Shown one piece after another: positions 8,978-28,916 of a stretch of 28,916 nucleotides of DNA. The translations under genes and the position numbers were made by a program. The notes beneath the pieces are model-generated. The model searched no databases and was not told where the DNA came from. It saw only the letters and a program-made list of their open reading frames with translations. Location of the stretch: NCBI GenBank assembly GCA_034189385.1, contig JAXHVD010000033.1:1-28916 (forward strand), written 5' to 3'. How positions within the stretch are numbered: the first letter of the stretch is position 1; each line of letters opens with the position of its first letter. The DNA comes from Thermodesulfobacteriota bacterium. GTDB taxonomy: Bacteria > Desulfobacterota > Desulfobacteria > Desulfobacterales > C00003060.

Positions 8978-8992
8978 ATTTCCCCTTTATGA

Positions 8993-9595: not shown

Positions 9596-9596
9596 G

Positions 9597-9716: not shown

Positions 9717-9796
9717 GGTTTACCTCACGTCGTTATTCCTGGGTCCAGGGGCAATCTTCTGAGCCTCACATGAGGTGTTCTGGCAATCACGCCAGT

Positions 9797-13170: not shown

Positions 13171-14343
13171 ATGTCCGTCTCGATACTCTTGCCGTTTGAG
13201 GTGATCCAACCGAGTGAAATCCTGTCTGAGCATGCTGAATGGGTCTACTTCTTCCTTGTTCTGATCTTCTTCGTGTCAATTGCGGGCGTCACTTTGAGGA
13301 GGCATTTCAGCAAGCCCTATGTGAAGCCATTGGTCATATCTGTAGGTCTCATGCTGACAGTAGGCGTGTTTCAGGTGAGAGACCTGCTGGTTTCAATCTT
13401 CGAGGGATGGGGTGCCTTGGGATCCATACTGTTGCTGATAATGGCCGCCTTCATACCTTACGGGCTGTGCAGGGGATTTGGCATGCAATCAAGAAGGGCT
13501 GTCTATGTCACATACACTCTCCTGTACATTCTTTCGTGGGTGAAGTTCCCGGAGATTTACCATGCTTTGGCAAACAAGAACCTCGGGCTCCTCAATTTGG
13601 CTCTTCTGATCTTGTTCTTTGTTGCTGCTTACAAGAGCGTGAGGCTCCCCAAGTCAGTTAGAGATTTGGCTTCAGGAGTCGAGACTGCTAGCAGCCCATT
13701 TGAGCCGGAAATCGAACGTGAAATTGATGTCCAAAAAAAAGAACAATGGCTGATCAAAAAACGAGGTCTTAAGAACACCAAGCTTGAGATCAAGACGATA
13801 GATGACATTGAGAAGGCATTGAGTGAAATCCAAAGTATTGTTGACCAGCACCGAAACAACATTCCGCGTGAAGAGCGAGAGAGGATGGCAGTCATACTGG
13901 GTGAGATGGCCAAGAAAGAGGACGTTTTTGTGCGCAGCATTCAACATGTACAAGAGATTATTCGGCGCAGCGGCACCTTGGACGAAGCACAGATCGAGGC
14001 CTTAAGGGACCGTGTGACCAGGGTCTCTGGAAAGGAACAAGAAATGATCTACGCTGAGATAGCCCGAGAAGAAGAGAAGCTGAAGATTGAAAGCGCGGCC
14101 CTTGCATTGGGACAGAGGCTCCGGCGAGACCTGGATGCTTTCAATGGATTCGTGACGCGGGCGATGGAGTGTGTCAGGGCTGCCCCTTATCCGTATGACG
14201 CAAAGCCTCATCTTTCCAGCGCAGAGTCGGTCCTGAACTGTATTTCCAAAACACTTAAAACCGTCAAGTCGCTTGAACGCAAGCTTCTGAGGTTGACGAG
14301 CGCGGAAAGAAACTTGCTAAAGAAAGAGAGGCAAAAGGTCTAG
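13171..14343 (+). CDS. Membrane protein: ~5 N-terminal TM helices plus long coiled-coil C-terminus
   Basis: Hydrophobic segments in the first ~155 aa, then a charged heptad-rich region. Confidence 0.75.
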   Translation: MSVSILLPFEVIQPSEILSEHAEWVYFFLVLIFFVSIAGVTLRRHFSKPYVKPLVISVGLMLTVGVFQVRDLLVSIFEGWGALGSILLLIMAAFIPYGLCRGFGMQSRRAVYVTYTLLYILSWVKFPEIYHALANKNLGLLNLALLILFFVAAYKSVRLPKSVRDLASGVETASSPFEPEIEREIDVQKKEQWLIKKRGLKNTKLEIKTIDDIEKALSEIQSIVDQHRNNIPREERERMAVILGEMAKKEDVFVRSIQHVQEIIRRSGTLDEAQIEALRDRVTRVSGKEQEMIYAEIAREEEKLKIESAALALGQRLRRDLDAFNGFVTRAMECVRAAPYPYDAKPHLSSAESVLNCISKTLKTVKSLERKLLRLTSAERNLLKKERQKV

Positions 14344-14518
14344 AAGGATAAACTTGTCTGTGGAGACTTCACCAAGATAACCCTCCGGTTTGGCGAATCA
14401 TGGTTCTTGGAAGGCAAATTCCGGACTGGCGCCCCTGGCCAGGGCATACGATAATAGTCAACCCCAAGGGCCATAGCCAAAATGTTGGGTTGTAACCATA
14501 ACGGAGGCTGGTTTCCTC

Positions 14519-14574
14519 TTGACAAACCCACTTAGCACCAATAGGATCGTCCCTCAATGTGAATTGTGATTCAC
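14519..14574 (+). promoter_or_regulatory. Promoter and candidate TetR operator
   Basis: TTGACA (14519-14524), 17 bp, TAGGAT (14542-14547). Palindrome GTGAAT-N4-ATTCAC (14559-14574). Confidence 0.65.
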
Positions 14575-14606
14575 GCCTCATGTTTTGAATTGGAGGGTGT
14601 TGGTGC

Positions 14607-15236
14607 ATGGAAGATGAGAGAAAAAGGCGGATACTGGATGCGGCGGTAGAGATTATTGCCAAGAAAGGATTCACCGAAGCGAAGGTACATGAAATATCAG
14701 ACGGAGCGAGGGTCGGCGTAGGTACCATTTATTCTCAGAAACTCTTTAAGAACAAACTTGACTTGCTTTTATCCATTACGCTTGATTTTTGGAAAAACTT
14801 GAACAAGCAGATAGAGCTCAGAGTGTCAAAAAAGGAGCATCCAGAGCAGAAGTTCTATGAGCTGCTCGCTATACTGGAAGAACTACTACTCGGTAATGTT
14901 CAATCTATATATCTCTCGAAAGTACTTCACGAAGCAATACCTCACATCTATTTCATAGAGGATGAAGAGCTAATAAAGAAACGAAGAAAAATTACACACG
15001 AAAACAGAAAACTACTTCGTAGTCTGGACCGAATAATTGAAGAAGGACAGAAGCAGGGCGAGTTCGATGATGCTCTTAGACCAACTGTGATGCGCCAAGT
15101 GTTGTTCGGTTCCTTTGAATTCCTATTGTACGGACTTTCCTTGGAAGCATCGGGGAGGGAAAAAGATGTGGGATATAAGGAACAAGACGTGAGGAAAGCA
15201 ATGGATGTCCTGTTCAACAAGTTCCTGAAGAAGTGA
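14607..15236 (+). CDS. TetR/AcrR-family regulator
   Basis: RRILDAAVEIIAKKGF...VGVGTIYS N-terminal HTH. Confidence 0.9.
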   Translation: MEDERKRRILDAAVEIIAKKGFTEAKVHEISDGARVGVGTIYSQKLFKNKLDLLLSITLDFWKNLNKQIELRVSKKEHPEQKFYELLAILEELLLGNVQSIYLSKVLHEAIPHIYFIEDEELIKKRRKITHENRKLLRSLDRIIEEGQKQGEFDDALRPTVMRQVLFGSFEFLLYGLSLEASGREKDVGYKEQDVRKAMDVLFNKFLKK

Positions 15237-15246
15237 CTTGTTTTGA

Positions 15247-15289
15247 CTCCAGGTGGTGTGCCGTCTCAGTGGAAACACACCACCCGGAG
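15247..15289. terminator. Hairpin between the convergent tetR and helicase genes
   Basis: CTCCAGGTGGTGTG / CACACCACCCGGAG stem with one mismatch. Confidence 0.6.
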
Positions 15290-15291
15290 CG

Positions 15292-17598
15292 CTAGAACAA
15301 CGTAAACTGAGCCGACACCGGCCCTTGGGATCGGTTAAGCATCTGATCGAGGTCAGCCTGCCTCACCTCAACATGGGTAACTTTCTTCTTTCGCTTACCG
15401 ATATATTCAACAAATTGAACCTTCACTACGCGATCCGCGATCTTCTCAACCTCCGTGCTAGCCTTCCTTATCTCGGGAGAAGGGTCATTGACCTCGCTCT
15501 TCTCCAGGACCTCTGGTCGTGGCTCCAGGCTTGAGATGTCCTTTTGAAGGCGCGCTTCCACCTGGACCTCTCTTTTTCGAAATTTAGCCCAGATATCCTT
15601 GAGACTCCGGCTGTCTTGGGCCTTTTCCAGGAGCATCCTGGCAAGCTCTTTTGCTATCGAATCCGATGTGTTCGAAAGGGCTGCCAGACCCCTGTCAGAG
15701 AGCTCTCCCTCGATGGCAAGGCTGCACATGAGCTTGTCCGCCATAAGCTGCATCAGGCGTGTCTGCATTGTGGCCGAATAGGTCAGGAAATTGACCTTAA
15801 CTGGCTTTTTTTGAGGTATGCGCCACGACCTTCTGGATGCCTGCCTAAGAGTGTAGGTGCTGATGGGGATCTGGTAAAAGACAATGGAAGGAAACTCCAG
15901 AAGGTCCATACCGACCTCAACCTTTCTTGGGTTTGTAATGAGTACCTCCATGCCTTTTCTTGTCCACCGGTCGATGATCTTCGCCCGCCCTTCAGTGTCC
16001 CCTGACCTGAGGACCTTCACCTTGATGCTCTCTTTCTCCATCATGGCAGTCAGCCTTGGGCTGATGTCCGTGGTATTGGAGTTCTGGATGTAGACCAGAA
16101 CCCTGCGGTGTTGTCTAAGCTCCTGTTTTACAATGCTTAGAAGCTCATGCTCTTTTGGCATGACTCCCTGAAGGGGAGGTCCAATCGCCACGGTTTCCTT
16201 TGTATGAGGATGAATGACCTCAAGGCCTTTGTACATCCGCTCGGGGTATGAGAGCAATGCATGGAGATAAGCCCCAAGGAGCGAGTTATCACCAACTGCC
16301 AAGGCCCCCTTCAGCTCCTGCTTCATGACCTCTTCGAACTCAGCGTACAGGCGCGCCATCTCTTGGGGCATGGCAAGTTCGATCACGTCTTCTTCATAGG
16401 GCTGAAGGTGCTCCATACAGTCCGAAAGCCGCATAAAGACTGCGTTTGGCAGTAGCATCTTTCCCAGAAGCAGGGGGCTGATCCCGGGTTTCTCCTTTAC
16501 AATCGTCCTCCGCTTTGCCTTTGTTGTTAGGCCGTCTTCCATCTTCACAGTTGTGATCCTTTCAAGCACCCCGTATTGTTCGATGAATGCCCTAGGGTTG
16601 CCCCAGATATGATTGGCTTGCCGCATCAGCTGTGGATGGGTCCTGAAGAGCAGATGATAGACATCAGAGGCATAGCCGCCTACCAGGGTCCCCGTAAGGC
16701 AAAGAATATGCTTACATGCACTTGCCAGGGCTCCAAAGGCGTATCCCTGCCCGGACTCGTTTTTGAGTTGATGGACCTCGTCAGCCACAAGCAGGTCAAA
16801 GAAGCCCTTCATCTTCAACTTGATGAATCTTGCCGGTATTACCTTACGATAGTTTCTGCGCGTATTATCTGGCTGCCATAGTTGTTCATTGCAAAAAGTA
16901 ACGGCCTTTTCGTACCGGCCTGTGTGAGCATCGTATTTCCATTTGCACATCGTGTTCCTGCAGCGATGCCGCTTTTTAAACCGTCCATGGGTGTTCTTCT
17001 CAAAGATAGGAAGTGGGCAGCCGTCACGGTCAAGCAGCTCCTTGCCACACTTGGGGCAAAAATGCCGGCCTCTTCTTGTCACTACCGCAGGCTTCCACAG
17101 AAAGCCTGTCTTTGCCCTTTCTCGACCGATCACATAGAACTGAAGCCGGTCAGACTTGGGCTGTTTCTTGAGATTTTGAAGCTGACTGATCACGTCCCGG
17201 CCATTGAGATTGTAGACTCCAGCATCCCAAAGGCCCTTCTTGATTTCCTGGATCCACTTCGGCACCAGGTGGGGCGGGCATACAACCAGGACCCTTCGTA
17301 TGTTTTTCAGCTTGGACAGAACATAACTCGTGCCTATGGCCATCAAAGTCTTTCCCGTTCCCATCTCGCAGACTGTGTAGACTGCTCTGTTTCCCGAAAC
17401 TAAGGATTTGTAGCAGGCCTTAATGATCTCAGCCTGCGAAGCAAAAGGCTGCTTCTTCATTTGGCTGAGTAGGCGTGAAAGATCTTCTTCCTTTTCGGTT
17501 GTAGGGTCATGGATGACCGCCAATTCATTCGTGACCTTCTCGGCCATGCTCTCGCCATACTCGTCAAGAAACGCCTTAAGAGAAATAGGGGTTCCCAT
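15292..17598 (-). CDS. SNF2-like (SF2) helicase with Zn-ribbon insertion, mobile-element type
   Basis: CEMGTGKT, VADEVH, LTGT, CPKC and QASRRSWRI motifs. AGGAGG RBS before MGTPISL (17598). Confidence 0.88.
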   Translation of the reverse strand: MGTPISLKAFLDEYGESMAEKVTNELAVIHDPTTEKEEDLSRLLSQMKKQPFASQAEIIKACYKSLVSGNRAVYTVCEMGTGKTLMAIGTSYVLSKLKNIRRVLVVCPPHLVPKWIQEIKKGLWDAGVYNLNGRDVISQLQNLKKQPKSDRLQFYVIGRERAKTGFLWKPAVVTRRGRHFCPKCGKELLDRDGCPLPIFEKNTHGRFKKRHRCRNTMCKWKYDAHTGRYEKAVTFCNEQLWQPDNTRRNYRKVIPARFIKLKMKGFFDLLVADEVHQLKNESGQGYAFGALASACKHILCLTGTLVGGYASDVYHLLFRTHPQLMRQANHIWGNPRAFIEQYGVLERITTVKMEDGLTTKAKRRTIVKEKPGISPLLLGKMLLPNAVFMRLSDCMEHLQPYEEDVIELAMPQEMARLYAEFEEVMKQELKGALAVGDNSLLGAYLHALLSYPERMYKGLEVIHPHTKETVAIGPPLQGVMPKEHELLSIVKQELRQHRRVLVYIQNSNTTDISPRLTAMMEKESIKVKVLRSGDTEGRAKIIDRWTRKGMEVLITNPRKVEVGMDLLEFPSIVFYQIPISTYTLRQASRRSWRIPQKKPVKVNFLTYSATMQTRLMQLMADKLMCSLAIEGELSDRGLAALSNTSDSIAKELARMLLEKAQDSRSLKDIWAKFRKREVQVEARLQKDISSLEPRPEVLEKSEVNDPSPEIRKASTEVEKIADRVVKVQFVEYIGKRKKKVTHVEVRQADLDQMLNRSQGPVSAQFTLF

Positions 17599-17611
17599 CG
17601 CTGCCTCCTTT

Positions 17612-18184
17612 CTAGTCCATGCATCTGATGACCTCCGGCACCTTGTTCCTGATCGCGTCGGATATGAGGTCATGCAGTTTTTTAGGGTTGAAGTAAAAGG
17701 AATAGCCTTTATAGTCTCCAATCAATGTTTTAAGTCTGTTGAGCCAGCCGTCCTCCTGCTCAAATAGTTGCCAGAGCCATTGGGCCCAAGATGGATGCAT
17801 CGGGATATCGGTCTTTTCATCCAAATGCCTGAAGAAGACCTGTTTTTCTCGGCCTTTTTTTGTGAAGACGCAAAAGCTGTCCTGGTCTTGGTCTTCACCT
17901 CGTGGCAGGGCCAGCTTGGGCAGGAGCAACGCGTGAACCAACCCTGAGGGCAGTTTCTTGAGCTTTACCTTGTAGCCCAGGCCTGAGCGGGTAAGATAGT
18001 GGCCAGTGCCTTCAATTTCCAGGCTGATGCCGTAGTCTTCCAAGAAATTGGCTATGATCCCCCTGACTGTGGTCTGATAGCCGCACACGGACATGAAGTA
18101 GACTCTTTCAGGGTCGTGAGGATCCACGATCACGTCAGAGCAGTACGCCTTGATGCCGGTAGCATGTATTGGATACAGTTTCAT
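17612..18184 (-). CDS. Hypothetical protein between the methyltransferase and the helicase
   Basis: GGAGGTG RBS; tight operon spacing; PMHPSWAQWLW motif. Confidence 0.75.
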   Translation of the reverse strand: MKLYPIHATGIKAYCSDVIVDPHDPERVYFMSVCGYQTTVRGIIANFLEDYGISLEIEGTGHYLTRSGLGYKVKLKKLPSGLVHALLLPKLALPRGEDQDQDSFCVFTKKGREKQVFFRHLDEKTDIPMHPSWAQWLWQLFEQEDGWLNRLKTLIGDYKGYSFYFNPKKLHDLISDAIRNKVPEVIRCMD

Positions 18185-18203
18185 GGCTGATATTCACCTC
18201 CTT

Positions 18204-19238
18204 CTAGCTAATCGTGAGCATTTCGCCCTGGCGATTAAATGCGTTGATGAAGATCGTGATCTTGTCGGTCTCAAAGTGTTTCTCGGTATCCCCGTGTACC
18301 TCAACCGAATGGTTGAGCTCCTTTTTCGTCAGACCTTTGACCAGCAACGGGTTTCTTTTTTTCTTGTCCCACACAATGCCGTTCATGAAACCGCCGGCAA
18401 GGATCTGTGCCAGGTGGCCGTAGCGCAATGGCATGACCGGCTTGATCCTTTCAGCCATTCTCAGCGGAGTTGTCATCTCTTCAACCTGCGAGAAGACCCC
18501 GTGCTGTTCTATTTCCTTGGCAAGCTCTTCAGGGTTGATCACCTTGCTTGTGAAAATGAAGATTCCCTTTGAAGGTGCCAGAGGGACTTCGTAGACATGT
18601 GGGGGGTCTTCCGAAAGATACGGAACCACAGCCTGAAGCTGGCCGCACTGCTTCAGGTACTCGGAAATGCTATCATCCTTGTCAGGTCTTTTTTTTAGCA
18701 TGCCGAGGATGGCTAGCTGTTTGAAGGCCCTGTATTCAGCCTCCGGGAAGCGAAAGACGCTCAGCTTCTCGAACCGGTACGAGAGCATCCGAGCAATGTG
18801 TCCGTCCAGCCTGTTTTGAGGGATCAGGTAGACGAGGATCCCCCCCGGACAAAGGTAGGGCGTGCAATCTCTAAGGAAGGTTCTTTCGTAGCGTTCTGAT
18901 TTTGCGATCTCATCATCCCGCACAGCCCAGTCATAGGGCGGGTTAAGGTAGAGGGCACTGAATGAGTTGTGGCTGATCCTTGTGTTCTGGTAGTCTGTGA
19001 CAAGACACTTGGTGAGAACATCCTTTGCCTTGCTGCCCCGCTCAAGGTCGACCTCAATGCCGAAACTCTCAGCGTCCAGATGGCTACCTATCGCTCGAAC
19101 AGCAGTGCCTTCACCCGCGCAGGGGTCGAGAACCCTTATGAGTCCCTCGCGCTGACGTCTCAGGTACTTCTTTATGATAGGGACTACACCCTCTGGAGTT
19201 GGGTAGTATCCCATCTTTGCTTGTGCTGCTAATCTCAT
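18204..19238 (-). CDS. SAM-dependent amino-DNA methyltransferase (DUF6094-like)
   Basis: GYYPTP, motif I LDPCAGEG, motif IV NPPY. No cognate restriction endonuclease adjacent. Confidence 0.88.
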   Translation of the reverse strand: MRLAAQAKMGYYPTPEGVVPIIKKYLRRQREGLIRVLDPCAGEGTAVRAIGSHLDAESFGIEVDLERGSKAKDVLTKCLVTDYQNTRISHNSFSALYLNPPYDWAVRDDEIAKSERYERTFLRDCTPYLCPGGILVYLIPQNRLDGHIARMLSYRFEKLSVFRFPEAEYRAFKQLAILGMLKKRPDKDDSISEYLKQCGQLQAVVPYLSEDPPHVYEVPLAPSKGIFIFTSKVINPEELAKEIEQHGVFSQVEEMTTPLRMAERIKPVMPLRYGHLAQILAGGFMNGIVWDKKKRNPLLVKGLTKKELNHSVEVHGDTEKHFETDKITIFINAFNRQGEMLTIS

Positions 19239-19339
19239 TTCAGACTCCTTTCTTTCCATAAGAAAGGGGCCTCCTTTCAGATCTATTTCCTGTATAGAGT
19301 GATCGGAGGCCCTCTGTGTTTAAGGGTTATTGTGATTCG

Positions 19340-19852
19340 CTATGAACAAGAGGTAGGTTCTTCTCCACGCAGCAGCCTGGAAAAGCGGCTTGAGACATCT
19401 TTCAGCCATCCGCTATCGGCCATGCTGTGGTATCCGTCTCCAATGACGATGTGATCATGGAACTGCACATCAATGCTTGCAGCTGCGATTCCCACCTTGA
19501 TGGATATGGACTTATCTTCAGCAGACGGCTGGATGTGGCCGGAGGGGTGGTTATGAGCCATAATGAAGGCGCTGGCCTTCAGTTGAATTAGCCTCTTTAC
19601 AATCTCCCGAGGATATATTGATGAGGATGTGATGCTTCCGGAAAACAGGTTTTCGATGGCGAGCACCTTGTTCCGGGCATCAAGGAAAATGATGTAGACC
19701 TTTTCAATGTCGTCCTCCTCTGCAAAAACTGGTTTAAGAACATTGTACACCTCCTGAGAGTTTGATACTGATTGTCCTTTTGACGATTCCTTGACCATGG
19801 AGACAAAACGGCCGGACTTCAAAGCATCCCAGAATTCTGATTCGTTGGTCAT
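19340..19852 (-). CDS. RadC-like JAB domain protein
   Basis: YPREI, AHNHPSG...PSAED and DHIVIG motifs; AGGAGG RBS. Confidence 0.92.
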   Translation of the reverse strand: MTNESEFWDALKSGRFVSMVKESSKGQSVSNSQEVYNVLKPVFAEEDDIEKVYIIFLDARNKVLAIENLFSGSITSSSIYPREIVKRLIQLKASAFIMAHNHPSGHIQPSAEDKSISIKVGIAAASIDVQFHDHIVIGDGYHSMADSGWLKDVSSRFSRLLRGEEPTSCS

Positions 19853-19937
19853 AGGGGCCTCCTTTCGGCACAAAAAAGCCCCCCTGGAGAGTTCCAGAGA
19901 GGCTTTCTTGCTTGGATAGTTTATCAGTTTGTTTGTG

Positions 19938-20750
19938 CTAGTTCATGACTGGCTCGCACTCATTTCCGCTACTGACGGTTGCTCCTTTCAGTATCAGGTT
20001 CAGGACATTTTCCGCCTCTCCCAAGACTTTCAAGCAGGCCACATGCGGGGTGAGTTTCACCTCCTCTGCATATCTTTCGATGTATCTGAAGGAATTGCCT
20101 GTGGTATCGTTCGCCTGCCTTCCGACGAGCCTGCAAAGGGCCTGGGCCGATAACTCTGCCACTATTTCCTGGAGGGGCTCCTGGCCGCAGGTTAGCTTGC
20201 CTTTGATCCTTTCGTGCCCCGCGTGTGCCAGTTCGTGAAAGAAGGTCTTTTCTTCAGGACTGGCTAAAGCTATCTCCTGACGTTCAGGCGAATAGTATCC
20301 ACTGAACCTGTAGTTGCCAGGGATCGCTTTTACGGATATCCCCCATTCCTTTGCCTTGTCCAGAAGTGGCAGTTGCGGAAGTTCTATGTTTCTATAGTCC
20401 AGCTCTTTTCCTTCGGTGTCCTCGTACATGAATACCGGCGTTGACTTGAAATATCTCAAGACCTCCTTTTCTTCCCCGGTTTCATCGTCAGTCTCTTTCT
20501 TGAAACACGGAACAAGGATGTATATGGCCCTTGCCCCTTTCTTCACCCACCTGTTCACTTGTTTCCACTGGCGAAAACCTCTAGCGTCTGCCGTACCTGC
20601 GAGAAACATCAGGGTGCGGTTGGTAAATGACCACTTGCTGCTCGGGGTATCAGGCACAGGAAAACTGGCCATGGCCACAGCTTCAGGTATTTCACCTGAT
20701 TTGAACTTTTCAACTATCAAATCTAAAACCTGTTTGACTCTGTTATTCAT
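19938..20750 (-). CDS. ArdC-like antirestriction protein (ssDNA-binding domain plus zincin-like domain)
   Basis: WSFTN, GFRQWKQVNRWVKKG, HELAH and EIVAEL motifs. Confidence 0.8.
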   Translation of the reverse strand: MNNRVKQVLDLIVEKFKSGEIPEAVAMASFPVPDTPSSKWSFTNRTLMFLAGTADARGFRQWKQVNRWVKKGARAIYILVPCFKKETDDETGEEKEVLRYFKSTPVFMYEDTEGKELDYRNIELPQLPLLDKAKEWGISVKAIPGNYRFSGYYSPERQEIALASPEEKTFFHELAHAGHERIKGKLTCGQEPLQEIVAELSAQALCRLVGRQANDTTGNSFRYIERYAEEVKLTPHVACLKVLGEAENVLNLILKGATVSSGNECEPVMN

Positions 20751-20866
20751 TTCAACCCCCTCCATTTTTTTGGCTTTAGAAATACAAAAGCCCTTCTGTT
20801 AGGCCAGAGGGCTTTTGTGCAGTCTGTCTATGAGATTATGGGTTCTTGTGTGCTGGAAACTGCTGG

Positions 20867-21367
20867 TTAGAGGTATTCTTCGACCAGCGAGTAGTCGAAA
20901 TCCTCAATATCACAGTCTTGATTGTGCTTTTCCAATTCCTCTCTGCGTGCCGCAGACCCCTCTACAGGCTCAACACGATAGAGCTTCAAATGCCTGCCGA
21001 AGTCTTGCCTCATCTGTCCCAATTGAGATAAAGCCTCTGCTGGGTCATCATAGCCCAAGGGGTCATCTGGAGAGACGACCATGAATCCCAGCCTGTGTTT
21101 GGGGTTGCCGATAATGTGAATCGAGTCTCTTGTTTCCTTGGCAGCCTCGGCAATCAATGGTTCGTTTTCAGCATACTCGTCCTTTTCGTCTAAGAAATGC
21201 TTTGCATTGGCAATCATTCCATCAGCGTCGTAAAGGGCCGCATCATTGTGTTCAACATTCATGGCCTTGACATATTTTGACAGCGCCTGAATTGCCATGC
21301 TGGGATCATGGAAAAACACCACCTCTGCGATGATCCCTCTTGATACAGTAACTAAGACCTGGTTCAT
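20867..21367 (-). CDS. Acidic hypothetical protein
   Basis: 166-aa ORF with GAGGTG RBS, co-oriented in the gene run. Confidence 0.7.
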   Translation of the reverse strand: MNQVLVTVSRGIIAEVVFFHDPSMAIQALSKYVKAMNVEHNDAALYDADGMIANAKHFLDEKDEYAENEPLIAEAAKETRDSIHIIGNPKHRLGFMVVSPDDPLGYDDPAEALSQLGQMRQDFGRHLKLYRVEPVEGSAARREELEKHNQDCDIEDFDYSLVEEYL

Positions 21368-21428
21368 TTTTTCTCACCTCTCTCATTGGGGGTGAAGCCG
21401 CCCCAACTCTGCCAGGCGGCTTCACTGG

Positions 21429-21647
21429 CTATGATAGTTTTCCGTTTTGTCCATTTGAACCAAAGACGCATTGGTTGCAAAAGCTCCGGTCTCTACATGC
21501 GTCGCATACCAGTTTGGCGTCTGCGACCTGCCCAACATAATCAAATACATGTTCGATAGCTTGTGTCATAGGTATTTCAAGAGCCCAGGCGATTCGCCTG
21601 AGTGTACCACTATGCTTAAGGCTAAGTTCTGGCGTATATGCCATCAT
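21429..21647 (-). CDS. Small protein with a Cys cluster (CxxC...CxxC)
   Basis: AGGAGG RBS; C-terminal VCDACRDRSFCNQC. Confidence 0.7.
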   Translation of the reverse strand: MMAYTPELSLKHSGTLRRIAWALEIPMTQAIEHVFDYVGQVADAKLVCDACRDRSFCNQCVFGSNGQNGKLS

Positions 21648-21773
21648 CTACCTCCTTTCAAAAAAAGCAAAAGCCCGCCTGACCGAGACGGGCTATTTCA
21701 TGTTGTTGGTTCTTGTTTGCTCAGACTCTGGGAGCAGCTTGACCAACCACGAGGGTAGATTCGCGACTGACAA

Positions 21774-22067
21774 TCAGGGTAGCTTTCCCATGGCTTCGGT
21801 CGTATGGTCTCGGGCCGTTCTCTTTCGGCAGTGTTTGAGCAACTGGATTCCATTTTTGATGGCACTTATTGACTTGTTGAATTCACGTATCAGTAGCCTC
21901 CTTTTTCCAGGATCATCGGTTTTCTCGATACGGGATGCTGTGAAATGCGTCCCGAACATTGCAAGTGCGATGGTGTCCCTGAATTCATGAGTTGGTTTGG
22001 TCTGCTGGAGACAGTCCCGCAGTTCACCTCCTAGTGTTTTGAGTTCTTTTTGAAATGTTTCGCCCAT
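21774..22067 (-). CDS. Hypothetical protein
   Basis: AGGAGGTG RBS; 97-aa ORF. Confidence 0.65.
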   Translation of the reverse strand: MGETFQKELKTLGGELRDCLQQTKPTHEFRDTIALAMFGTHFTASRIEKTDDPGKRRLLIREFNKSISAIKNGIQLLKHCRKRTARDHTTEAMGKLP

Positions 22068-22160
22068 GACTTTTTCACCTCCTTTCTAAATAGAATGTGG
22101 CCTAAAGGCTGATGCAGTTAAGCCTGTGGTTAAGAAAATGACGGCTGTAGCTGTAGCTAC

Positions 22161-22187
22161 AAAAAAACCGTCTCCCGACGGAGACGG
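22161..22187 (-). terminator. Intrinsic terminator downstream of the HerA-like operon
   Basis: Perfect 8-bp stem CCGTCTCC/GGAGACGG followed by T7 on the minus strand. Confidence 0.75.
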
Positions 22188-22327
22188 CCTTACGGGTTGG
22201 CTCCAATGTTGCTGCGGTTGTCTTTTGCCTGAAGGTTTGTTTCTGGTGAGATGTCCCGGTGCGCCTTTTTCTATGAAGTGATCCGCATCCGGTACATTTT
22301 CCGGTTAGTATGAGGTAGGCTATATGA

Positions 22328-24262
22328 TCACAAAACGGGAGGATTGCTCAGGAAGTCTTTTGCAAAAACCACGCGGATGAGTTCCCTGTCAGGAACGATT
22401 AGCTCTCTTAGAACTTCCTTGATTCTGATTTCTGTCTCCCGGTTCGTGGTAACCATATATTTGAGGTCGGCTTTGTATCTGCCCAGCCTGGTGAGGTTTG
22501 CCTGGATATCAGATTTGCCGGTCTCCATTTGAATGGCCATTGTTCTTCCTACTGTTTCTACCACCAGGTCGATGTGATCTTTTTCCAAAAAGGTGAAGCC
22601 TTCTGCGCCCAAGTAGTGTTCCTTTATCTTTTCAAGATAGTATCTGTGCTCGAGGCCTCCGCGGCCTATTTGTACTGCCTTCTTTCCCAAGGCCTTTCTC
22701 GCTGCTAGCGTCAGCTCATAGAGCCGGTTGCCATCAATGGTAAGGGGCCTTATGAGTTGAAGAGACATGAGTTCTTCAATCACGCTATAGCCATGGGAAA
22801 TCGTAAGCCCCAGCTCTTTGAACCTTTTGACCAGGCCCAAGATGGGCCTCTGGGCGACGTGTTCAAGCATTATCCGGCCCAGGGGGGATAGTGTTTCACC
22901 CTTTTGAATACCGCAAATATTGCTGGTTTTGGGCGGAGCTATCACATTTGGGCTTGAATCCTTCAAATATCCTTCCATGTGCCTTTTTAGGTCATCATCG
23001 GTCACCAAACCCTTTTTCAGGGGAAAATTCGCAATGGACAGAAGGACGGGTTTGGCAAAACGATCGGAACGGCAAATGCACTGTCCCAGGGTCAGCATGG
23101 ATAGATATCTTTGCTCGTTTTTATCCAAGAGCATGGCATTTGATATGGCCTTTACGTCTTGATTGAGTGAAAGGGTAAGGGCGAATTTGGTGGAGAGGTT
23201 CCCCAGAGCACTCACTGACATTTTGCTCGGGTGCTGATCGATAATGATGATTGCTTCTCCCAGTTCACGGATCTCTCTCATGATCACATCGGCGATGTCT
23301 TCTTCTTGCCGTGTTTTCAAAAACAGGTGATGGGCCTCTTCGATGATCATAAAATGCTTCAAAACCTCCCGCTCGGGCTGCCTCATCCTGTAGTGGTAGA
23401 TCCACAAAAGCAGGCTTCCGATCACAAAGGCCTGGTCAGAGCCAGACAGCCCGTCCAGTTCAAGGATGACCTTTTTATTGAGCAGTTCTGGAATAGGATA
23501 TCCCGCTAGGCAGTTCACCATTTCCCCCAAGCCGGGATAGTTTATCGCGTTCAAGGTCCGTTTCACGCTGGCCCACCAGAGGAGCTCCCTGGCCTTCTTT
23601 TTCTGTTTTAGCACATTGTTCTGCATATCCTTAAATGTGCTCATGCCGGCACTTTCCATGAACACGTCATTGGCCCCGGGCCCAAGAAGGTAGACCTTTT
23701 CGATGATCTCCGAAAGCTGCTTGATCCAAACATATTCTTCCACTCCGGCAGGGCCTTGTTTCGGGTTGAAATAGAAGGGGACCACGTCATTTCTTCCCAC
23801 AGTGAAGACAAGAATTTCCTGGTCTTTGAAGTCAGGGTGTTTTAGGAGGTCGCGGTAGTTCCGCTTGTAGTCGAAGATCAGAAAGGGGTGGTTGTGTTTG
23901 CAAAGCTCTCTTAGAATCCTGATGGAAAGCGTCGTTTTTCCACTTCCCGTTTTTCCAAAGAGGCCCGTATGGCAAAGCCAGGAAGGCTGCTTCACACCAA
24001 AGAGCCCGAACGGTTTACCTCCAAACATGGCTTCACCAATGGGGTATTCTCCTTCAAGGAGGTTTCTTTCAGGGGGAGGAAGCAGTATGTTTTCCGTCTT
24101 AAGCCCCGGGACGTGTTTTGCGATCAAAAGGTCCATCATGTTTTCAATCTCTCTTCGCTTTCGGGGGTCTTTTTCTAAAATGTACCGGACGCGCAGGTAC
24201 TCCCACTGGGCCGGCGGAAGGACAGGCTTCAAGAGCTTCAGCTTTTCATCAATCCATTCCAT
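22328..24262 (-). CDS. HerA/FtsK-superfamily (DUF87-like) ATPase with C-terminal HTH-like and PD-(D/E)XK-like region
   Basis: Walker A GKTGSGKT, IFDYK, Walker B IIEEAH, REIRELG, IDQHP. C-terminal EHRY...IDLVV...QMETGKSD. Confidence 0.85.
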   Translation of the reverse strand: MEWIDEKLKLLKPVLPPAQWEYLRVRYILEKDPRKRREIENMMDLLIAKHVPGLKTENILLPPPERNLLEGEYPIGEAMFGGKPFGLFGVKQPSWLCHTGLFGKTGSGKTTLSIRILRELCKHNHPFLIFDYKRNYRDLLKHPDFKDQEILVFTVGRNDVVPFYFNPKQGPAGVEEYVWIKQLSEIIEKVYLLGPGANDVFMESAGMSTFKDMQNNVLKQKKKARELLWWASVKRTLNAINYPGLGEMVNCLAGYPIPELLNKKVILELDGLSGSDQAFVIGSLLLWIYHYRMRQPEREVLKHFMIIEEAHHLFLKTRQEEDIADVIMREIRELGEAIIIIDQHPSKMSVSALGNLSTKFALTLSLNQDVKAISNAMLLDKNEQRYLSMLTLGQCICRSDRFAKPVLLSIANFPLKKGLVTDDDLKRHMEGYLKDSSPNVIAPPKTSNICGIQKGETLSPLGRIMLEHVAQRPILGLVKRFKELGLTISHGYSVIEELMSLQLIRPLTIDGNRLYELTLAARKALGKKAVQIGRGGLEHRYYLEKIKEHYLGAEGFTFLEKDHIDLVVETVGRTMAIQMETGKSDIQANLTRLGRYKADLKYMVTTNRETEIRIKEVLRELIVPDRELIRVVFAKDFLSNPPVL

Positions 24263-24263
24263 T

Positions 24264-25013
24264 TTATGTCATGACAAAATCCCTTTTGCAGTACCCTCCG
24301 CATGTGCATGGATAGTCCTGTTCGTCGTGAGACACGGTCTTTTCACGCACTGACTTGATCAGGGTTCTCGCATAATCCAAGAGTTCGTCGTCCACACGGA
24401 TTGGCGCGGGGTCATCTGGAAATTTCACAAAATGGATTAAGATGGACTCAGGCACCTCGTTATATTTGTCCTGATACAACAGGGCATAAAGGGCAGCTTG
24501 TCTTAGGATGTCGTCTGTGATGTTTGCATATTTGGAGGTCTTGTAATCCACCAGTGCGACTTTGTCGTCCCATGTGTGAACCGCATCGATGATTCCCATT
24601 AGCCCAAGCGTTTTCGATACGATCTTTGTTTCTGAGAGATCAGGAGACGCCAGGTTGTTCCTGTAAAACCATTGGCTGAAATTAAAAATCATGAGTTCGC
24701 TGTCATCACGATAAAAGTCGATCTCCTGCCTTGTAAGGCCCAGGGAGTTCAGACTTCCCGCAGCCCCTATCCATTCCCTGTGAAATGTATTGAGAAGGTC
24801 TTGGCGGATCTTTGTAAGAGAGACTTGTGGCGCCGTTTTCGGGTAGTTTATGTGAAATTCATGGATGGCTTTGTGGACGATCCTGCCGCGGACAAGATGA
24901 ATGGATGGCTTTGTTTGAAGCCTTCTTATGTACCTGAGATAAAACTTTCGGGGGCACGAAAGATAGGTATTAATAGCTGTTGGGCTCAGTATTCGTTTTT
25001 CAATTTTGACCAC
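24264..25013 (-). CDS. PD-(D/E)XK nuclease, Cas4/AddB-like, with probable Fe-S ligands
   Basis: LSPTAINTYLSCPRKFYLRY, GRIVH, GIIDAV, VDYKT, QAALY; C-terminal CTCGGYC. Confidence 0.88.
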   Translation of the reverse strand: MVKIEKRILSPTAINTYLSCPRKFYLRYIRRLQTKPSIHLVRGRIVHKAIHEFHINYPKTAPQVSLTKIRQDLLNTFHREWIGAAGSLNSLGLTRQEIDFYRDDSELMIFNFSQWFYRNNLASPDLSETKIVSKTLGLMGIIDAVHTWDDKVALVDYKTSKYANITDDILRQAALYALLYQDKYNEVPESILIHFVKFPDDPAPIRVDDELLDYARTLIKSVREKTVSHDEQDYPCTCGGYCKRDFVMT

Positions 25014-25155
25014 CTCGGTCTGGTTTTCTTTTGTTCAATACGGAAACGAATGTCACGATCACGTGTTCGAGCTGCCAATCATCCATCATCATGGCGAAGC
25101 TAACTGGATCGCTGGCAAGTTTTTGTACCTCTTCCCTACTTACAAGACCTTTCAT
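25000..25155 (-). CDS. 51-aa protein (not in the ORF track)
   Basis: ATGA overlap with the upstream stop; reads MKGLVSREEVQKLASDPVSFAMMMDDWQLEHVIVTFVSVLNKRKPDRGGQN; overlaps the nuclease start. Confidence 0.6.
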   Translation of the reverse strand: MKGLVSREEVQKLASDPVSFAMMMDDWQLEHVIVTFVSVLNKRKPDRGGQN

Positions 25156-25679
25156 GCAAATTCCTCCGCTTGATTCATCAACATTGCTGCCTTCTGGTCT
25201 TCTTCGAGTTTCTCGATCAAAGTCTCTCTCAGTTCCTTCCGAAGGAAAGAGACGTCCCTAAAATAGTTTGCCATTTCCTTCCTTTTTTCTTGTTCGAGGC
25301 CAATGAGCTGCCGCTCAAGTTGGAGCCTTCGATTGTCAATCAGATCTCCGAGCTCGTAGATCAGATTTGTACACACACATTGGTCGAGGGAAATCCGATA
25401 AAGGTTTTTGTCTCTCAACTTGTATCTTTGGTACATTTCTGAAAAGAGCAGCCGGGCCTTGAATGAAATGATATCGCGTCTCTGGTTCATCAATTCTTCC
25501 AACCCGTACACCCCCCCCACATTGGAGTTATTCCCAAGCAAGGTGTCGCCATTATCTTGGTATCCATTTTGAGGATACAGATACTTGGGGTCAAATGGAG
25601 CGTAGAGAAGTGTTTTTGCTTGGGCATCATTTCGCTCCTTATTTGTTTTGAAAATCATCTTTTTGGCTCCAGTTTCCAT
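25152..25679 (-). CDS. Helical/coiled-coil hypothetical protein, first gene of the nuclease-ATPase operon
   Basis: 175-aa ORF; coiled coil RLQLERQLIGLEQEKRKE; coupled to downstream ORFs. Confidence 0.75.
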   Translation of the reverse strand: METGAKKMIFKTNKERNDAQAKTLLYAPFDPKYLYPQNGYQDNGDTLLGNNSNVGGVYGLEELMNQRRDIISFKARLLFSEMYQRYKLRDKNLYRISLDQCVCTNLIYELGDLIDNRRLQLERQLIGLEQEKRKEMANYFRDVSFLRKELRETLIEKLEEDQKAAMLMNQAEEFA

Positions 25680-25879
25680 ATTTTTACTACTAGAAAGTTG
25701 TCATCTTTTAAAAAACTTTGGGCCTCGAAAGGGTTTGCCGCTATCTAAGTGGTCGTGTTTCAGGAAGGGGAGGCAGGAAGAGCCCTTACTTTTCCCAGAA
25801 GTTGGCAGAGTTGTGTTTCCGAAAAGTATATATGACACCTGTGTCTCAGATTGTTTTTATGCTGATCGAGTCTCGTGGG

Positions 25880-26443
25880 ATGTATCGTCTACATAGATTG
25901 TCACTCATCATAATGGCAATCTTCCTTTACTCTGGTTGTTCCTGCGACCCTGTACCCACGGTCTGCAGATTTCACGAACCATTGAGTGAGTCTGGTTATG
26001 GGAACACCTGCTTGAACATCCACGGTGCTGTGGCAGGGGACATAATCCCTGGCGCGCAGGTCTATCTTTTCCAGCCTTCAAGCCTGAATTTGTCAGTCGT
26101 CTTGACTGAAATCAGGACGATGCCTGCGCTGGGGTGGCGGCCTGTAAACGAATCAGGGGCTTTTGAGTTTCATTGTCTCTCGCCAGGTGAGTACGTCTTT
26201 GTTATCCCCACAACGTCATATGATGGTTGGATAGGTTTCCCCCTGCCGTATGAGGTCGACTGTGAGAATCTCTCAGTTCGAATCGTCTTTCATGGTGGTG
26301 ATTATAAATACGCTGTCGGTGCGTTCGGGGTCATCGATTCCAGGGTAGAGTATGTTGAGAAATGCACTGGCTCGTCATGGGTCTGTAGGGACCTGATGGG
26401 CTCCCTGTACAGAGAATGTCGCAATAACTCTAGGCAACGGTGA
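25880..26443 (+). CDS. Cys-rich exported/lipoprotein-like protein with a beta-rich domain
   Basis: Signal-like MYRLHRLSLIIMAIFLYSGCSC; GAFEFHCLSPGEY resembles prealbumin-like/carboxypeptidase-regulatory folds. Start uncertain. Confidence 0.55.
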   Translation: MYRLHRLSLIIMAIFLYSGCSCDPVPTVCRFHEPLSESGYGNTCLNIHGAVAGDIIPGAQVYLFQPSSLNLSVVLTEIRTMPALGWRPVNESGAFEFHCLSPGEYVFVIPTTSYDGWIGFPLPYEVDCENLSVRIVFHGGDYKYAVGAFGVIDSRVEYVEKCTGSSWVCRDLMGSLYRECRNNSRQR

Positions 26444-26489
26444 CTGCTTTCCTTGAAATCTTCGACAAAAAATGGTTCTGGAAACAGTG

Positions 26490-26661
26490 TCCTAGACTGG
26501 AAAATGTCCAGTCTAGGAGTAAATGTCCTGTGGAAGGTGTAGTTGTTGTTTGTTGTATGTTGTCTATTAGTTATATATAGTTTCCATATAGAAAATAATA
26601 ATGAAAGAAAAAGAGGAGACAGGAAAAGGGAAAAGGGAAATTCCACAGGAAATCTCCCCCC
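26490..26661. other. Candidate replication origin: inverted ORB-like repeats flanking an AT-rich tract
   Basis: TCCTGTGGAA (26526-26535) and TTCCACAGGA (26641-26650) are a perfect inverted pair around an AT-rich tract that is T-rich then A-rich. A 12-bp perfect inverted repeat lies at 26490-26501 / 26507-26518. Confidence 0.6.
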
Positions 26662-26735
26662 ACATTTCGGTTCTCACCCAGGAGTGCTTACAAAGCATTA
26701 AATAGTACTGGCGCATCTGGAGGTAAAGGAAGAAA

Positions 26736-27995
26736 ATGTCTCCTAGAAAAGCATCCAAGCCAGACAGCACAGAATGTCTGATTGAAATGCTGCATGCTAC
26801 GAGACGCAAGCGCTCCTTGGTGATGAATCCAGACTATCTTGATGATGAAAAGCTTCCTGAAGAGGAGCGAACAGCTGTACTGAAAGAGATATTTAATCGG
26901 AATATTCGGGAAAAGCAGCTGAGCCGCATCATCTCTCACCTTACACCAGTGCTCGATGGTATTCACCCACCCTCTGCCCTGATTTTCGGCCCGACTGGTT
27001 CTGGGAAGACAGTTACTTTGATGCACGTGCTCTCTACTTTCAAGCGCGTGGCAAACAGCCACGGAGTCAGCTTTCGCTACGCCTATATAGACCTCACCTC
27101 TCCTAAAAGCTACTTTGGTGCCTTAAATGAGGTCGCCATTGCGCTGGACAGTACAAACAAGAAATATCGCAAAGGCATTCCTGTAGAGTATATGCAGGAC
27201 AGGATTGTGGATGCCATAAAGCAGGATAGTGGCTACGTCTGTTTCTTAATAGATGAAGCAGACAACATAAGACCTAACCCCGATTCCTTTCTTACCTTTC
27301 TTGGAAAAACACTTCCTCGTAAGGTGTCCTGCAGGCTCACAATGATCCTTCTTACAAACAAGCTGTACTGGGAAAAGAATCTTGATCCCCGAATCCTGAG
27401 TTTCCTTAAAAAAACAGACATTATCTTCGAGCCATACAATGCCCTGGACCTTCTGGAGATTCTCAAGTTGCGTGTCAAAAAGGCCCTCAACAAGAAGAAA
27501 GTGAAACCTGCGGCACTCAGAAAGGTGGCAGCTTACGCGTCCCGAGAGACAGGGGATGCCAGAAAGGCAGTGGAACTTCTGGCTAAAGCCGTCCGGGTGG
27601 CTGAGGAGACTTCCGGACATTTGACAGAGAAGGAAGTGGATGTTGCGGAAGATAGACTGGAAATCGACAAGACAGAAGAGCTGATTCGAGCACTGGCAAC
27701 CCAACAGCGGGTCGCCCTTGTTGCGTGCTACGCCATTTTGGCAAAAAACGTTTCAAGGGTGTCCACGGGACAGGTCTATCAGACCTACAGGCAACTCTGC
27801 GTGGAGGAGAAGCTCCGGCCCCTGACTCAAAGGCGGTTTAGTGACATCATTAGCTTTCTCGACCTATATGGGCTGATTAGCACGAGGATGGTTTCCAGGG
27901 GACGCTACGGTACTACGAGGGAAATATTGGTGTCGTTGCCTGCAGAGGTAGTCGAGGGGCTCTTAAAGCCAGGAACGGCTTTCCAAAATGGGTGA
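26736..27995 (+). CDS. cdc6: Orc1/Cdc6-family AAA+ replication initiator with C-terminal winged helix
   Basis: GPTGSGKT, FLIDEAD, LDPRILS, FEPYNALDLLEIL, GDARKAVELL; wHTH TGQVY...LTQRRFSDIISFLDLYGLI...SRGRYGTTREI. Confidence 0.92.
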   Translation: MSPRKASKPDSTECLIEMLHATRRKRSLVMNPDYLDDEKLPEEERTAVLKEIFNRNIREKQLSRIISHLTPVLDGIHPPSALIFGPTGSGKTVTLMHVLSTFKRVANSHGVSFRYAYIDLTSPKSYFGALNEVAIALDSTNKKYRKGIPVEYMQDRIVDAIKQDSGYVCFLIDEADNIRPNPDSFLTFLGKTLPRKVSCRLTMILLTNKLYWEKNLDPRILSFLKKTDIIFEPYNALDLLEILKLRVKKALNKKKVKPAALRKVAAYASRETGDARKAVELLAKAVRVAEETSGHLTEKEVDVAEDRLEIDKTEELIRALATQQRVALVACYAILAKNVSRVSTGQVYQTYRQLCVEEKLRPLTQRRFSDIISFLDLYGLISTRMVSRGRYGTTREILVSLPAEVVEGLLKPGTAFQNG

Positions 27996-27996
27996 A

Positions 27997-28155
27997 GATT
28001 GCTCTTGAATACCCGAAAAATACATCAGTTTCAAAAGGTTGGATCTCATAGCATTACCTAACACCCAGCGAAACCGTACGCCGGGCATGATCTGCAGAGC
28101 AGAGTTAACATCTCACGAAGTCCTGGACTGGCGGGCGCCACCACAACATGTGGGG
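27997..28155 (+). repeat. Right copy of the ~160-bp block-conserved direct repeat
   Basis: Matches 668-826 without gaps at offset 27329; begins 1 nt after the cdc6 stop. Confidence 0.9.
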
Positions 28156-28169
28156 GCTTTTGCGTAGGA

Positions 28170-28193
28170 AGGCAGGGCCGAATGACCCTGCCT
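28170..28193. terminator. Hairpin between the right repeat and the convergent gene
   Basis: 8-bp stem AGGCAGGG / CCCTGCCT. Confidence 0.55.
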
Positions 28194-28219
28194 CTGATCA
28201 TGATCCACAACGAGGTGCA

Positions 28220-28915
28220 CTAAGGGACAATACAGATGGAGTCTGTGCCCTCTATGGGTGTACCGTCCACTAGTTCCCCCGTTAGTTCTGCCATGTCATT
28301 TTGTGGAACCCAGTTCTCGGGATCGTCCTCAAAGTGGCAAACTAAATCCAGAAATTCATCCTCATTTGAATACTCCGTTGAACACAGCGGTCCCTTATTC
28401 CCTCTGACGCGGACTTCAAGGCCAGCAAATGACAAAGTCTCGACGTCAATATCGCTGACGTCAAAGTCGGCGCTGCCAAGGATCGCCACCGGGATAACAC
28501 CGTGCCCGTTGAGATTAAAGCAATTCGGATCACTACCAGGCTTGATGTCTATTTCTACGGTGATGAACTCATTTTGGACAGCGACACACAGACTACCCCA
28601 TTCGTTTCCTCGGCAGTACGGTGTTTCATTTGCTCCCAGAAACAGATATCCTGATACATCAACCGTTGCCGTCAGAGATGATCCGACCAGAAAGACCTGA
28701 TCATCGATTTTCCCGATGAGGGCACCTATCCTTTCACCGGGCAGAGGGTAATAGTCATTAGCTATGTTGGTCTCACCATCGGGGCCTACTCCGCTCCCAC
28801 TTCCCTGCCCAACACCCCATAGGCCGGTAGCGGTAATGGTAAGCTTGTCACCTGAAGAAACAGGTATGAAGGTATTTGTCCATTCAACTTCAGCTGGGAC
28901 CTCTATTGTTCCTGC
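28220..28915 (-). CDS. C-terminal part of a probable extracellular protein with a LecA/PA-IL-like beta domain; start outside the window
   Basis: The frame is open to the edge: WTNTFIPVSSGDKLTITATGLW...GPDG...GALIGKI, then IDIKPGSDPNCFN...GVIPVAILGS. Confidence 0.75.
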   Translation of the reverse strand, partial: AGTIEVPAEVEWTNTFIPVSSGDKLTITATGLWGVGQGSGSGVGPDGETNIANDYYPLPGERIGALIGKIDDQVFLVGSSLTATVDVSGYLFLGANETPYCRGNEWGSLCVAVQNEFITVEIDIKPGSDPNCFNLNGHGVIPVAILGSADFDVSDIDVETLSFAGLEVRVRGNKGPLCSTEYSNEDEFLDLVCHFEDDPENWVPQNDMAELTGELVDGTPIEGTDSICIVP

Positions 28916-28916
28916 C

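Follow-up and report, generated by a model that had tools for sequence, protein, structure and literature searches.

The window analysed here is the entire 28,916-base contig C27 of a metagenome bin from a Thermodesulfobacteriota bacterium (4.13 Mb in 64 contigs; 90% complete, with 4.19% estimated contamination). The gene in question, an orc1/cdc6 homologue (hereafter, orc1; positions 26736–27995, + strand), encodes a full-length protein of 419 amino acids, and in the DNA upstream of it two inverted boxes resembling archaeal origin recognition boxes (ORBs) enclose an A+T-rich stretch. Two Shine-Dalgarno-like elements can be read in the sequence on the same strand: a GGAGG (26719–26723) located 12 nt 5' of the ATG and a second element, AGGA (26727–26730), located 5 nt 5' of it.

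The Orc1/Cdc6 protein and its relatives

The window protein is composed of a clade-specific N-terminal stretch delimited from an alignment of the clade (residues 1–57; 26736–26906, + strand), an AAA+ module that begins at residue 58, a lid (residues 241–305; 27456–27650, + strand; Pfam Cdc6_lid, 5.4e-12) and a winged helix (residues 315–406; 27678–27953, + strand; Pfam Cdc6_C, 2.2e-24). Pfam also places AAA_22/AAA_16 on the protein. The Walker A motif GPTGSGKT (residues 85–92; 26988–27011), the Walker B motif LIDEAD (residues 171–176) and the sensor-2 motif GDARKA (residues 273–278) are all intact; across 26 members of the clade, G85–T92 (with the exception of S89), D173, E174, D176 and G273–A278 are invariant. 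The NCBIfam model for orc1/cdc6, TIGR02928, is passed with 256.7 bits against a cut-off of 181.3. The family model, the Pfam domains and the reading of the motifs agree, and by these matches the window protein is a genuine member of the Orc1/Cdc6 initiator family. A preliminary description of this DNA had already noted the full-length protein with its intact motifs and the GGAGG ribosome-binding site, and both are confirmed.

Among proteins of solved structure, the best relatives by sequence are the DNA-bound ORC1 of Aeropyrum (PDB chain 2v1u_A, 2.3e-47) and Orc1-1 of Sulfolobus (2qby_A, 3.9e-46). Residues 58–410 align with both chains without a large gap, and the gap in the region of the initiator-specific motif (ISM) amounts to 2 residues. 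A predicted structure model, calculated from a shallow alignment of 26 rows (pLDDT 64.7), returned the same two chains as the top Foldseek matches (E 6e-20 for 2v1u_A and 8e-20 for 2qby_A). The TM-scores of 0.34–0.40 are low because the model is mediocre, and no residue-level claims are drawn from it. According to an excerpt of the work on Sulfolobus Orc1-1, mutants of G120/L121 in the ISM, R341 in the helix and R365 in the wing show weaker binding to mORB DNA (PMC3089459). The DNA-contact residues named in that excerpt are kept in the window protein, where they correspond to G147/I148, R366 and R390 and are invariant across the 26 clade members; the matching uses a numbering offset of 11 derived from the motifs.

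The N-terminal stretch sets the protein apart. Unlike the archaeal proteins, the window clade has its own conserved N-terminus of 57 residues, with many invariant residues around YLDDE..L...ER. This stretch does not align to archaeal proteins, the archaeal matches starting at residues 57–58, and the structure model is without confidence over it. It is strongly conserved inside the bacterial clade and is a candidate adaptor to a bacterial partner. A predicted complex of Orc1 with the genome's own DnaB scored 0.00 and gives no evidence either way.

An exhaustive profile-free search for homologues returned 3,053 representatives, the nearest of which share 55, 45, 40 and 40% identity with the window protein and the others roughly 30%. 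A quick maximum-likelihood tree of 116 rows places the window clade, which comprises 11 rows with a support of 99, on a long stem within a clade of 19 rows (support 96). Names were looked up for 20 representatives of the nearest outgroup, and a single cluster carried that of an organism: a Micrarchaeota Cdc6, located on the neighbouring side of the tree. By sequence, the window Orc1 is in a separate clade, and in contrast to the archaeal chromosomal ORC1 proteins it falls below the NCBI equivalog cut-offs. In a plasmid collection, 90 rows were examined (the 30 best and 60 spread, of 425 records); all are archaeal, with at most 30% identity. Both matching records in a phage collection are likewise archaeal, with at most 30% identity.

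Distribution among bacteria is sparse. The protein is without a match in 60 relatives of the source genome (36 of the same genus and 24 of the same order), and positions 14000–28916 of the window are matched in none of the 36 same-genus genomes. Among 400 other genomes sampled from the phylum the protein was found in two, with four and two copies; it is a rare gene, with several copies where it does occur. Two of the four copies in one of these genomes (G126; L096 on contig C475 and L097 on contig C66) each hold one in-frame stop, so that some orc1 copies appear to be decaying. Named holders include Thermodesulfobacteriota bins, a Desulfobacteraceae bin, strain NaphS2 and Desulfocarbo indianensis (two copies). 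NaphS2 and D. indianensis are cultured; the close relatives show 70–77% identity and reside on contigs of up to 8.16 Mb. A scan of viral contigs detected no related locus, and a scan of genome contigs detected 2 loci only.

Inverted boxes around A+T-rich DNA upstream of orc1

Two inverted repeats that had been reported upstream of the gene were both recovered in place. One is a perfect 12-nt inverted repeat with a 5-nt loop (26490–26501 / 26507–26518; TCCTAGACTGGA / TCCAGTCTAGGA), the right arm of which occupies the place of the distal box's G-rich string in other loci. The other is formed by inverted arms at 26516–26535 and 26641–26660 (core TCCTGTGGAA / TTCCACAGGA) that are 105 nt apart and 80% complementary over 20 nt. 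These arms lie within two ORB-like boxes, scored here with a position weight matrix built from related loci. The proximal box is a strong copy on the − strand (26638–26669; 31.9 bits), with a core that reads TTCCACAGGAA on the + strand at 26641–26651 and GGGGGGAGAT-TTCCTGTGGAA on the − strand. The distal box, on the + strand (26507–26538; core GTCCTGTGGAA at 26525–26535), is a weak copy with 15.6 bits. The 105-nt stretch between them (26536–26640) is a candidate DNA-unwinding element, with 70% A+T overall and 85% in the best 40-nt window, compared with 51% in the gene. The inverted pair around an AT-rich core that had been described earlier is thus present with the spacing and A+T content given above, with the qualification that its left box is a weak copy.

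By rough arithmetic, about 0.1 perfect 10-nt inverted pairs are expected by chance in 500 nt, which makes such a pair weak evidence alone; the corresponding expectation for a perfect 12-nt short-loop hairpin is about 6e-4. It is the comparison with related loci, and not the window alone, that places the boxes beyond chance. A promoter scan of 26300–28300 returned no sigma-70-like site. In the 4.13-Mb genome as a whole, the proximal box beside orc1 is the sole site that reaches at least 20 bits.

For this comparison, 479 relatives were collected by a word-based search, the best 120 at 72–77% identity together with one at 95%, and loci were fetched from genomes (2) and metagenomes (80). Five of them (L073, L075, L076, L082 and L087), in which the match begins after residue 70, were left out because the upstream DNA is missing, and the set used for comparing boxes comprises 77 related loci and the window. 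Exact copies of TTCC-NNN-GGAA occur 91 times in the 32,656 nt upstream of orc1 (within 450 nt; 2.79/kb) versus 30 times in 529,811 nt outside the upstream region (0.057/kb), and at least one exact box is present in 55 of the 66 loci with at least 350 nt of upstream DNA. The box extends over some 30 nt and consists of a G-rich string, (A/G)AT and then the dyad TTCC-NNN-GGAA. Full archaeal ORBs also carry a G-rich string beside the dyad. The dyad of the window clade is close to the 17-nt mORB oligonucleotide of Sulfolobus Orc1-1 that appears in the excerpted paper (PMC3089459). A 32-nt matrix constructed from the 75 unique boxes and applied with a threshold of 14 bits identified 170 sites in 35,481 nt of upstream DNA versus 13 in 526,986 nt elsewhere; since the exact boxes are the training set, only the degenerate matrix sites add new information.

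A convergent pair of boxes with the G-strings pointing outward is seen in 54 of the 65 loci that have enough upstream DNA. The distal box of such pairs is on the + strand, mostly at about −210 to −310 and up to −412 from the start, and the proximal box is on the − strand at −82 to −137. The window agrees with this arrangement, its distal box lying at −211 from the ATG in the + orientation and its proximal box at −95. Over the related loci the median spacing of the boxes is 146 nt, and the DNA between them has a median A+T content of 0.74 versus 0.52 in the gene; it is more A+T-rich than the gene in every two-box locus (54/54), with 93% in the best 40-nt window. Conservation of the motif upstream of bacterial homologues, on which the preliminary description had left its proposal to depend, is evident both from these pairs and from the fall in box density from 2.79 to 0.057 per kb outside the upstream region.

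The boxes co-vary with the protein. In 37 of 57 loci the two arms have an identical central triplet, where the marginals predict 20.3; this contrast is inflated by kinship. On a tree of 75 proteins, the GAT and TGT types of box track the protein clades and change 3 times. Both patterns speak indirectly for binding of the boxes by the initiator. A residue-by-box test of co-evolution was rejected, as three changes of box type are too few independent events.

A third exact box, on the + strand, is found in 11 loci. In ten of these (L008, L040, L044, L049, L052, L059, L062, L063, L074 and L081) it lies at −14 to −7, which is at or just 5' of the orc1 start codon, and in one (L038) at −38; no third box is seen near the start codon in the window. 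The position of the third box resembles that of an autorepression site or operator. It is conceivable that Orc1 is an autoregulated DNA-binding factor without a role in replication, such as a repressor or switch for excision, transfer or maintenance genes, with the boxes serving as its operator and the A+T-rich stretch as its promoter. The boxes lie no more than 310 nt from the protein's own start, the third box, which touches or closely precedes the start codon in ten of the 11 loci, is operator-like in its placement, and a second strong site is missing from the genome, which fits a regulator that acts locally. However, the ATPase machinery and the ISM are invariant in the clade and a plain repressor needs neither, and the convergent pair around DNA of 74% A+T in 54 of 65 loci is the layout by which origins are defined in an excerpted source (PMC5333045). 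Autoregulation is, moreover, compatible with origin function. A purely regulatory role is accordingly judged unlikely.

A bacterial host and an integrated, accessory element

The host of the orc1 element is a bacterium. Its genome carries DnaA (167 bits) and DnaB (370 bits), and the DnaB_C domain scores 370–380 bits both in this source genome (G000) and in a further genome (G364). A search with PF00493 identified no real MCM in G000, G126 or G364, the only matches being partial and of at most 33 bits; similar partial matches were obtained in all 14 control genomes, E. coli included. The earlier remark that the window has no MCM therefore holds for the whole genome.

The left end of C27 and the start of contig C10 share an overlap of 54 nt; no other two contigs of the assembly overlap in this way. 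The C-terminal part of a tyrosine recombinase is encoded at this end of the window (3–593, + strand; PF00589, 1.4e-22), its first 74 codons form the start of C10, and the resulting frame of 253 amino acids is continuous across the join. Further along C10, positions 45001–60000 are conserved in 36 of 36 same-genus genomes. In an independent study's sequencing run (four runs were listed, none of them of RNA, and three were examined, as assembled contigs), a 649-nt piece of the window orc1 is present with 3 differences.

Contig C27 is the second least typical in tetranucleotide use among the 40 contigs of at least 10 kb (correlation 0.863), and its G+C content is 0.486 versus 0.518 for the genome. 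Together with the 4.19% contamination estimated for this metagenome bin, such a composition could be taken to mean that C27 is mis-binned archaeal DNA or a chimera. This explanation is very hard to reconcile with the 54-nt overlap and the unbroken integrase frame that connect C27 to C10, the conserved part of which is shared by the entire genus sample, and with the presence on C27 of LysR and TetR regulators, an IS3-type transposase, ArdC and RadC. In addition, relatives at 70–77% identity are found in named bacteria on contigs of up to 8.16 Mb, including the cultured D. indianensis and NaphS2, and the run of the independent study contains the same gene. We consider an archaeal or chimeric origin of the contig extremely improbable. 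The bacterial context put forward in the preliminary description is borne out by the host's DnaA and DnaB, the join to a core contig and the named bacterial holders, and the archaeal–bacterial chimera that it had named as a danger to its proposal is contradicted by the long bacterial contigs, the cultured isolates and the C10 join.

Immediately to the left of the boxes is a gene for a protein of 241 amino acids (25718–26443, + strand) that represents cluster 10 of the element backbone and is found in 6 of 30 long loci; its product has no match in Pfam, PHROG or PADLOC. It is preceded by another backbone gene (25152–25679, − strand; 175 amino acids, cluster 14; 5 of 30 long loci), by a gene for a nuclease of the PD-(D/E)XK / Cas4-like type (24264–25013, − strand; PF12705, 2.4e-22) and by one for a HerA/FtsK-type ATPase with a DUF87 domain (22328–24262, − strand), which matches mad8 (8.2e-18) and the HerA models of PADLOC. 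Still further to the left, a SNF2-type helicase, a DUF6094 methyltransferase, RadC and ArdC-N (15292–20765, − strand) constitute a block typical of transferable elements, and relatives of ArdC-N adjoin orc1 in 5 of the 30 long loci. The DUF6094 methyltransferase matches PADLOC mad2 (1.7e-12). With the mad8 match and the SNF2 helicase, the regions 15292–19259 and 22328–24262 may represent a partial methylation-associated defence set.

The same neighbourhood raises a further explanation, in which Orc1 is a defence ATPase of the 'HerA/FtsK capture' kind that acts with the neighbouring HerA/FtsK ATPase and the PD-(D/E)XK nuclease. Excerpts of PMC10853773 describe mobile bacterial neighbourhoods that couple an ATPase of the Orc/CDC6 family with HerA/FtsK and restriction-type nucleases, for which a role in immunity is proposed, and in the window the ATPase gene, with its mad8 and HerA matches, and the nuclease gene lie 2.5–4.4 kb to the left of orc1. 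In the excerpted account, however, an inactive nuclease domain invariably separates the AAA+ core from the winged helix. The 419-residue protein has no such insert: it is collinear with archaeal Orc1 (2v1u_A), and its lid and winged helix come straight after the AAA+ core. The linkage is also loose: of the 30 long loci, 5 have a relative of the HerA-like ATPase, located between −6.9 and +6.6 kb from orc1, and 7 have one of the nuclease, between −8.0 and +8.9 kb. Since side and distance vary in this way, the two are not operon partners of orc1. Orc1 itself matches no defence model beyond the P-loop stretch, and a defence role would leave the conserved succession of box, A+T-rich DNA and box unexplained. 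A defence function of this kind is regarded as improbable.

An IS3-type transposase (rve, HTH_21; 1748–2952, − strand) is preceded by an open reading frame of 112 amino acids that overlaps its start by 4 nt; a two-frame arrangement is usual in this transposase family. At 8237–10633 (− strand), a NYN protein with an OST-HTH/LOTUS domain adjoins a non-specific DNA/RNA endonuclease. The region 253–1475, which covers the integrase and a transglutaminase-like region, has copies of 92–96% identity on three other contigs (C6:116536–117177, C36:8663–9100 and C12:12335–12644). These copies indicate that the genome contains several related integrating elements, which in turn accounts for the contig break at the left end.

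At the other end, a dispersed repeat with a G+C-rich hairpin lies just past the orc1 stop and outside the module (27989–28195). It has seven further matches at 69–89% identity, on C22 (three places), C60, C6, C36 and C1, and explains the assembly break near orc1. A Logan contig passes the end of the window and meets 28142–28194 again, so that a PA-IL-like gene (28220–28915) is flanked by two copies of the repeat.

Clustering of neighbouring genes over all loci indicates a common backbone with variable gene order. The gene most commonly found just downstream of orc1 is cluster 2 (L017:2296–3093 and relatives; 13 of 30 long loci). Its protein is without a family, and a search of the atlas led to nameless bacterial clusters and to weak ScpA/kleisin-like leads (0.76–0.79, below 0.8). 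In the source genome, several of the backbone genes found beside orc1 elsewhere are located on contig C22, the second compositionally odd contig. At 9.9–29.7 kb (L110–L112) it carries clusters 2, 3 and 1, which follow orc1 in other loci, and then a methylase, GmrSD, Replic_Relax, ParB, ParA, the anaerobic ribonucleotide reductase NrdD with its activase, toxin-antitoxin pairs and a second integrase. From this gene content, C22 is probably the continuation of the C27 island. A tRNA scan found none in the window or in C10:1–15000, and no attachment site was identified; element ends and a type IV secretion set were likewise not found.

The orc1 unit is part of an integrated, accessory mobile element. 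The term 'autonomous replicon', used in the preliminary description, is not sustained: the unit belongs to an island that is integrated, with an integrase gene spanning the contig join, and its relatives are located within contigs of 318 kb to 8 Mb.

A candidate origin in comparison with known initiation systems

According to excerpts of two papers, archaeal origins consist of an A+T-rich unwinding element flanked by ORBs (PMC5333045), and bacteria initiate replication with DnaA and DnaB, whereas archaea and eukaryotes use Orc/Cdc6 and MCM (PMC11880632 and PMC5333045). With moderate confidence, we favour the reading that the window contains the replication-initiation module of an integrated element, made up of Orc1, the convergent boxes and an A+T-rich site of opening, at which a helicase other than MCM would be loaded. 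The origin function is suggested by the layout and its conservation, from which we infer the successive steps of binding, unwinding, helicase loading and replication. ATP-bound Orc1 would engage both boxes by means of its winged helix and ISM and deform the DNA, and the A+T-rich stretch between the boxes would then open. The helicase loaded at the opened stretch would have to be the host DnaB or another protein of the element, because there is no MCM in these genomes. Once excised, the element would replicate in the manner of other integrative elements. Through the gene-proximal box, and the third box present in some relatives, Orc1 might also repress its own gene. That Orc1 and an ORB-type origin make up a true bacterial replicon that loads a helicase other than MCM, the host DnaB being the simplest candidate, is a more tentative proposal, and we hold it to be possible without counting on it.

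Several observations weigh against this reading. No circular form of the element was found, and none of 83 related loci has overlapping ends, although this is a weak test as most of the loci are pieces of longer contigs. Related copies are situated inside contigs of 318 kb to 8 Mb, and copies embedded in such long chromosomal contigs would be passively replicated most of the time. Neither the window nor the set of conserved neighbours includes a recognisable replicative helicase, primase or loader, and the step after box binding is without known precedent because MCM is not present. The link between C27 and C22 is drawn from gene content only. The distal box of the window is weak, with a GTCC in its core in place of TTCC (15.6 versus 31.9 bits for the proximal box). 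The NCBIfam equivalogs for archaeal ORC1 (NF001625, NF001623 and NF001626) are not reached, the best score being 246.8 versus 501. Lastly, simple autoregulation would also give boxes beside the initiator's own promoter.

Among the closest counterparts are the archaeal pairs of initiator and origin, such as Sulfolobus oriC1/oriC2 with Orc1-1, Aeropyrum ORC1 and Pyrococcus oriC. These initiators belong to the same family and have the same order of domains, and in the excerpted description their boxes are likewise beside the gene and inverted around A+T-rich DNA (PMC5333045). In contrast to these pairs, the window comes from a bacterial host that has DnaA and DnaB and lacks MCM, and the module is carried by an integrated, rare and multi-copy element. 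In this last respect it resembles the plasmids and viruses of archaea (haloarchaeal replicons, the Methanosarcina, Methanothermobacter and Picrophilus plasmids, and SNJ2), in which an accessory replicon also brings its own Orc1/Cdc6; the hosts of these replicons supply MCM, and none is bacterial among the rows examined.

The Orc/CDC6 systems coupled to HerA/FtsK are, as far as the excerpts of PMC10853773 describe them, bacterial and mobile, with HerA/FtsK and a nuclease nearby, as in the window. They differ in that the window Orc1 is without the nuclease insert and its linkage to HerA and the nuclease is loose, and the excerpts make no mention of an origin-like layout of boxes such as that of the window clade. 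A literature search, with subscription journals mostly outside its reach, turned up no description of a bacterial Orc1/Cdc6 accompanied by ORB boxes. The window Orc1 family might be listed in Data S1 of PMC10853773, which lay outside this search.

For a module working in a bacterium, the closest functional analogy is provided by the iteron-type initiators (RepA/RepE/pi), which are encoded by the element, bind repeats beside an A+T-rich stretch, repress their own synthesis and use the host DnaB. A relationship between their winged helix and the one in Orc/Cdc6 has been proposed, according to an excerpt of 10.1101/2024.09.03.610885. The iteron-type initiators belong to other families and have no AAA+ ATPase module, and on the basis of its domain content the window protein is excluded from them.

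A conserved unit of Orc1 and origin-like DNA thus persists in bacteria that have no MCM. If the module fires, an Orc-type initiator can couple to a bacterial-type helicase, which would bear on the evolution and interchangeability of the two initiation systems: it would be a natural cross-domain hybrid of both cellular systems that mobile elements have spread among anaerobic bacteria. Should the module not fire, the initiator would have been re-used as a regulator on mobile DNA. The cultured carriers of close relatives, D. indianensis and NaphS2, make the module directly testable, and it may offer a new replicon for genetics in anaerobic bacteria.

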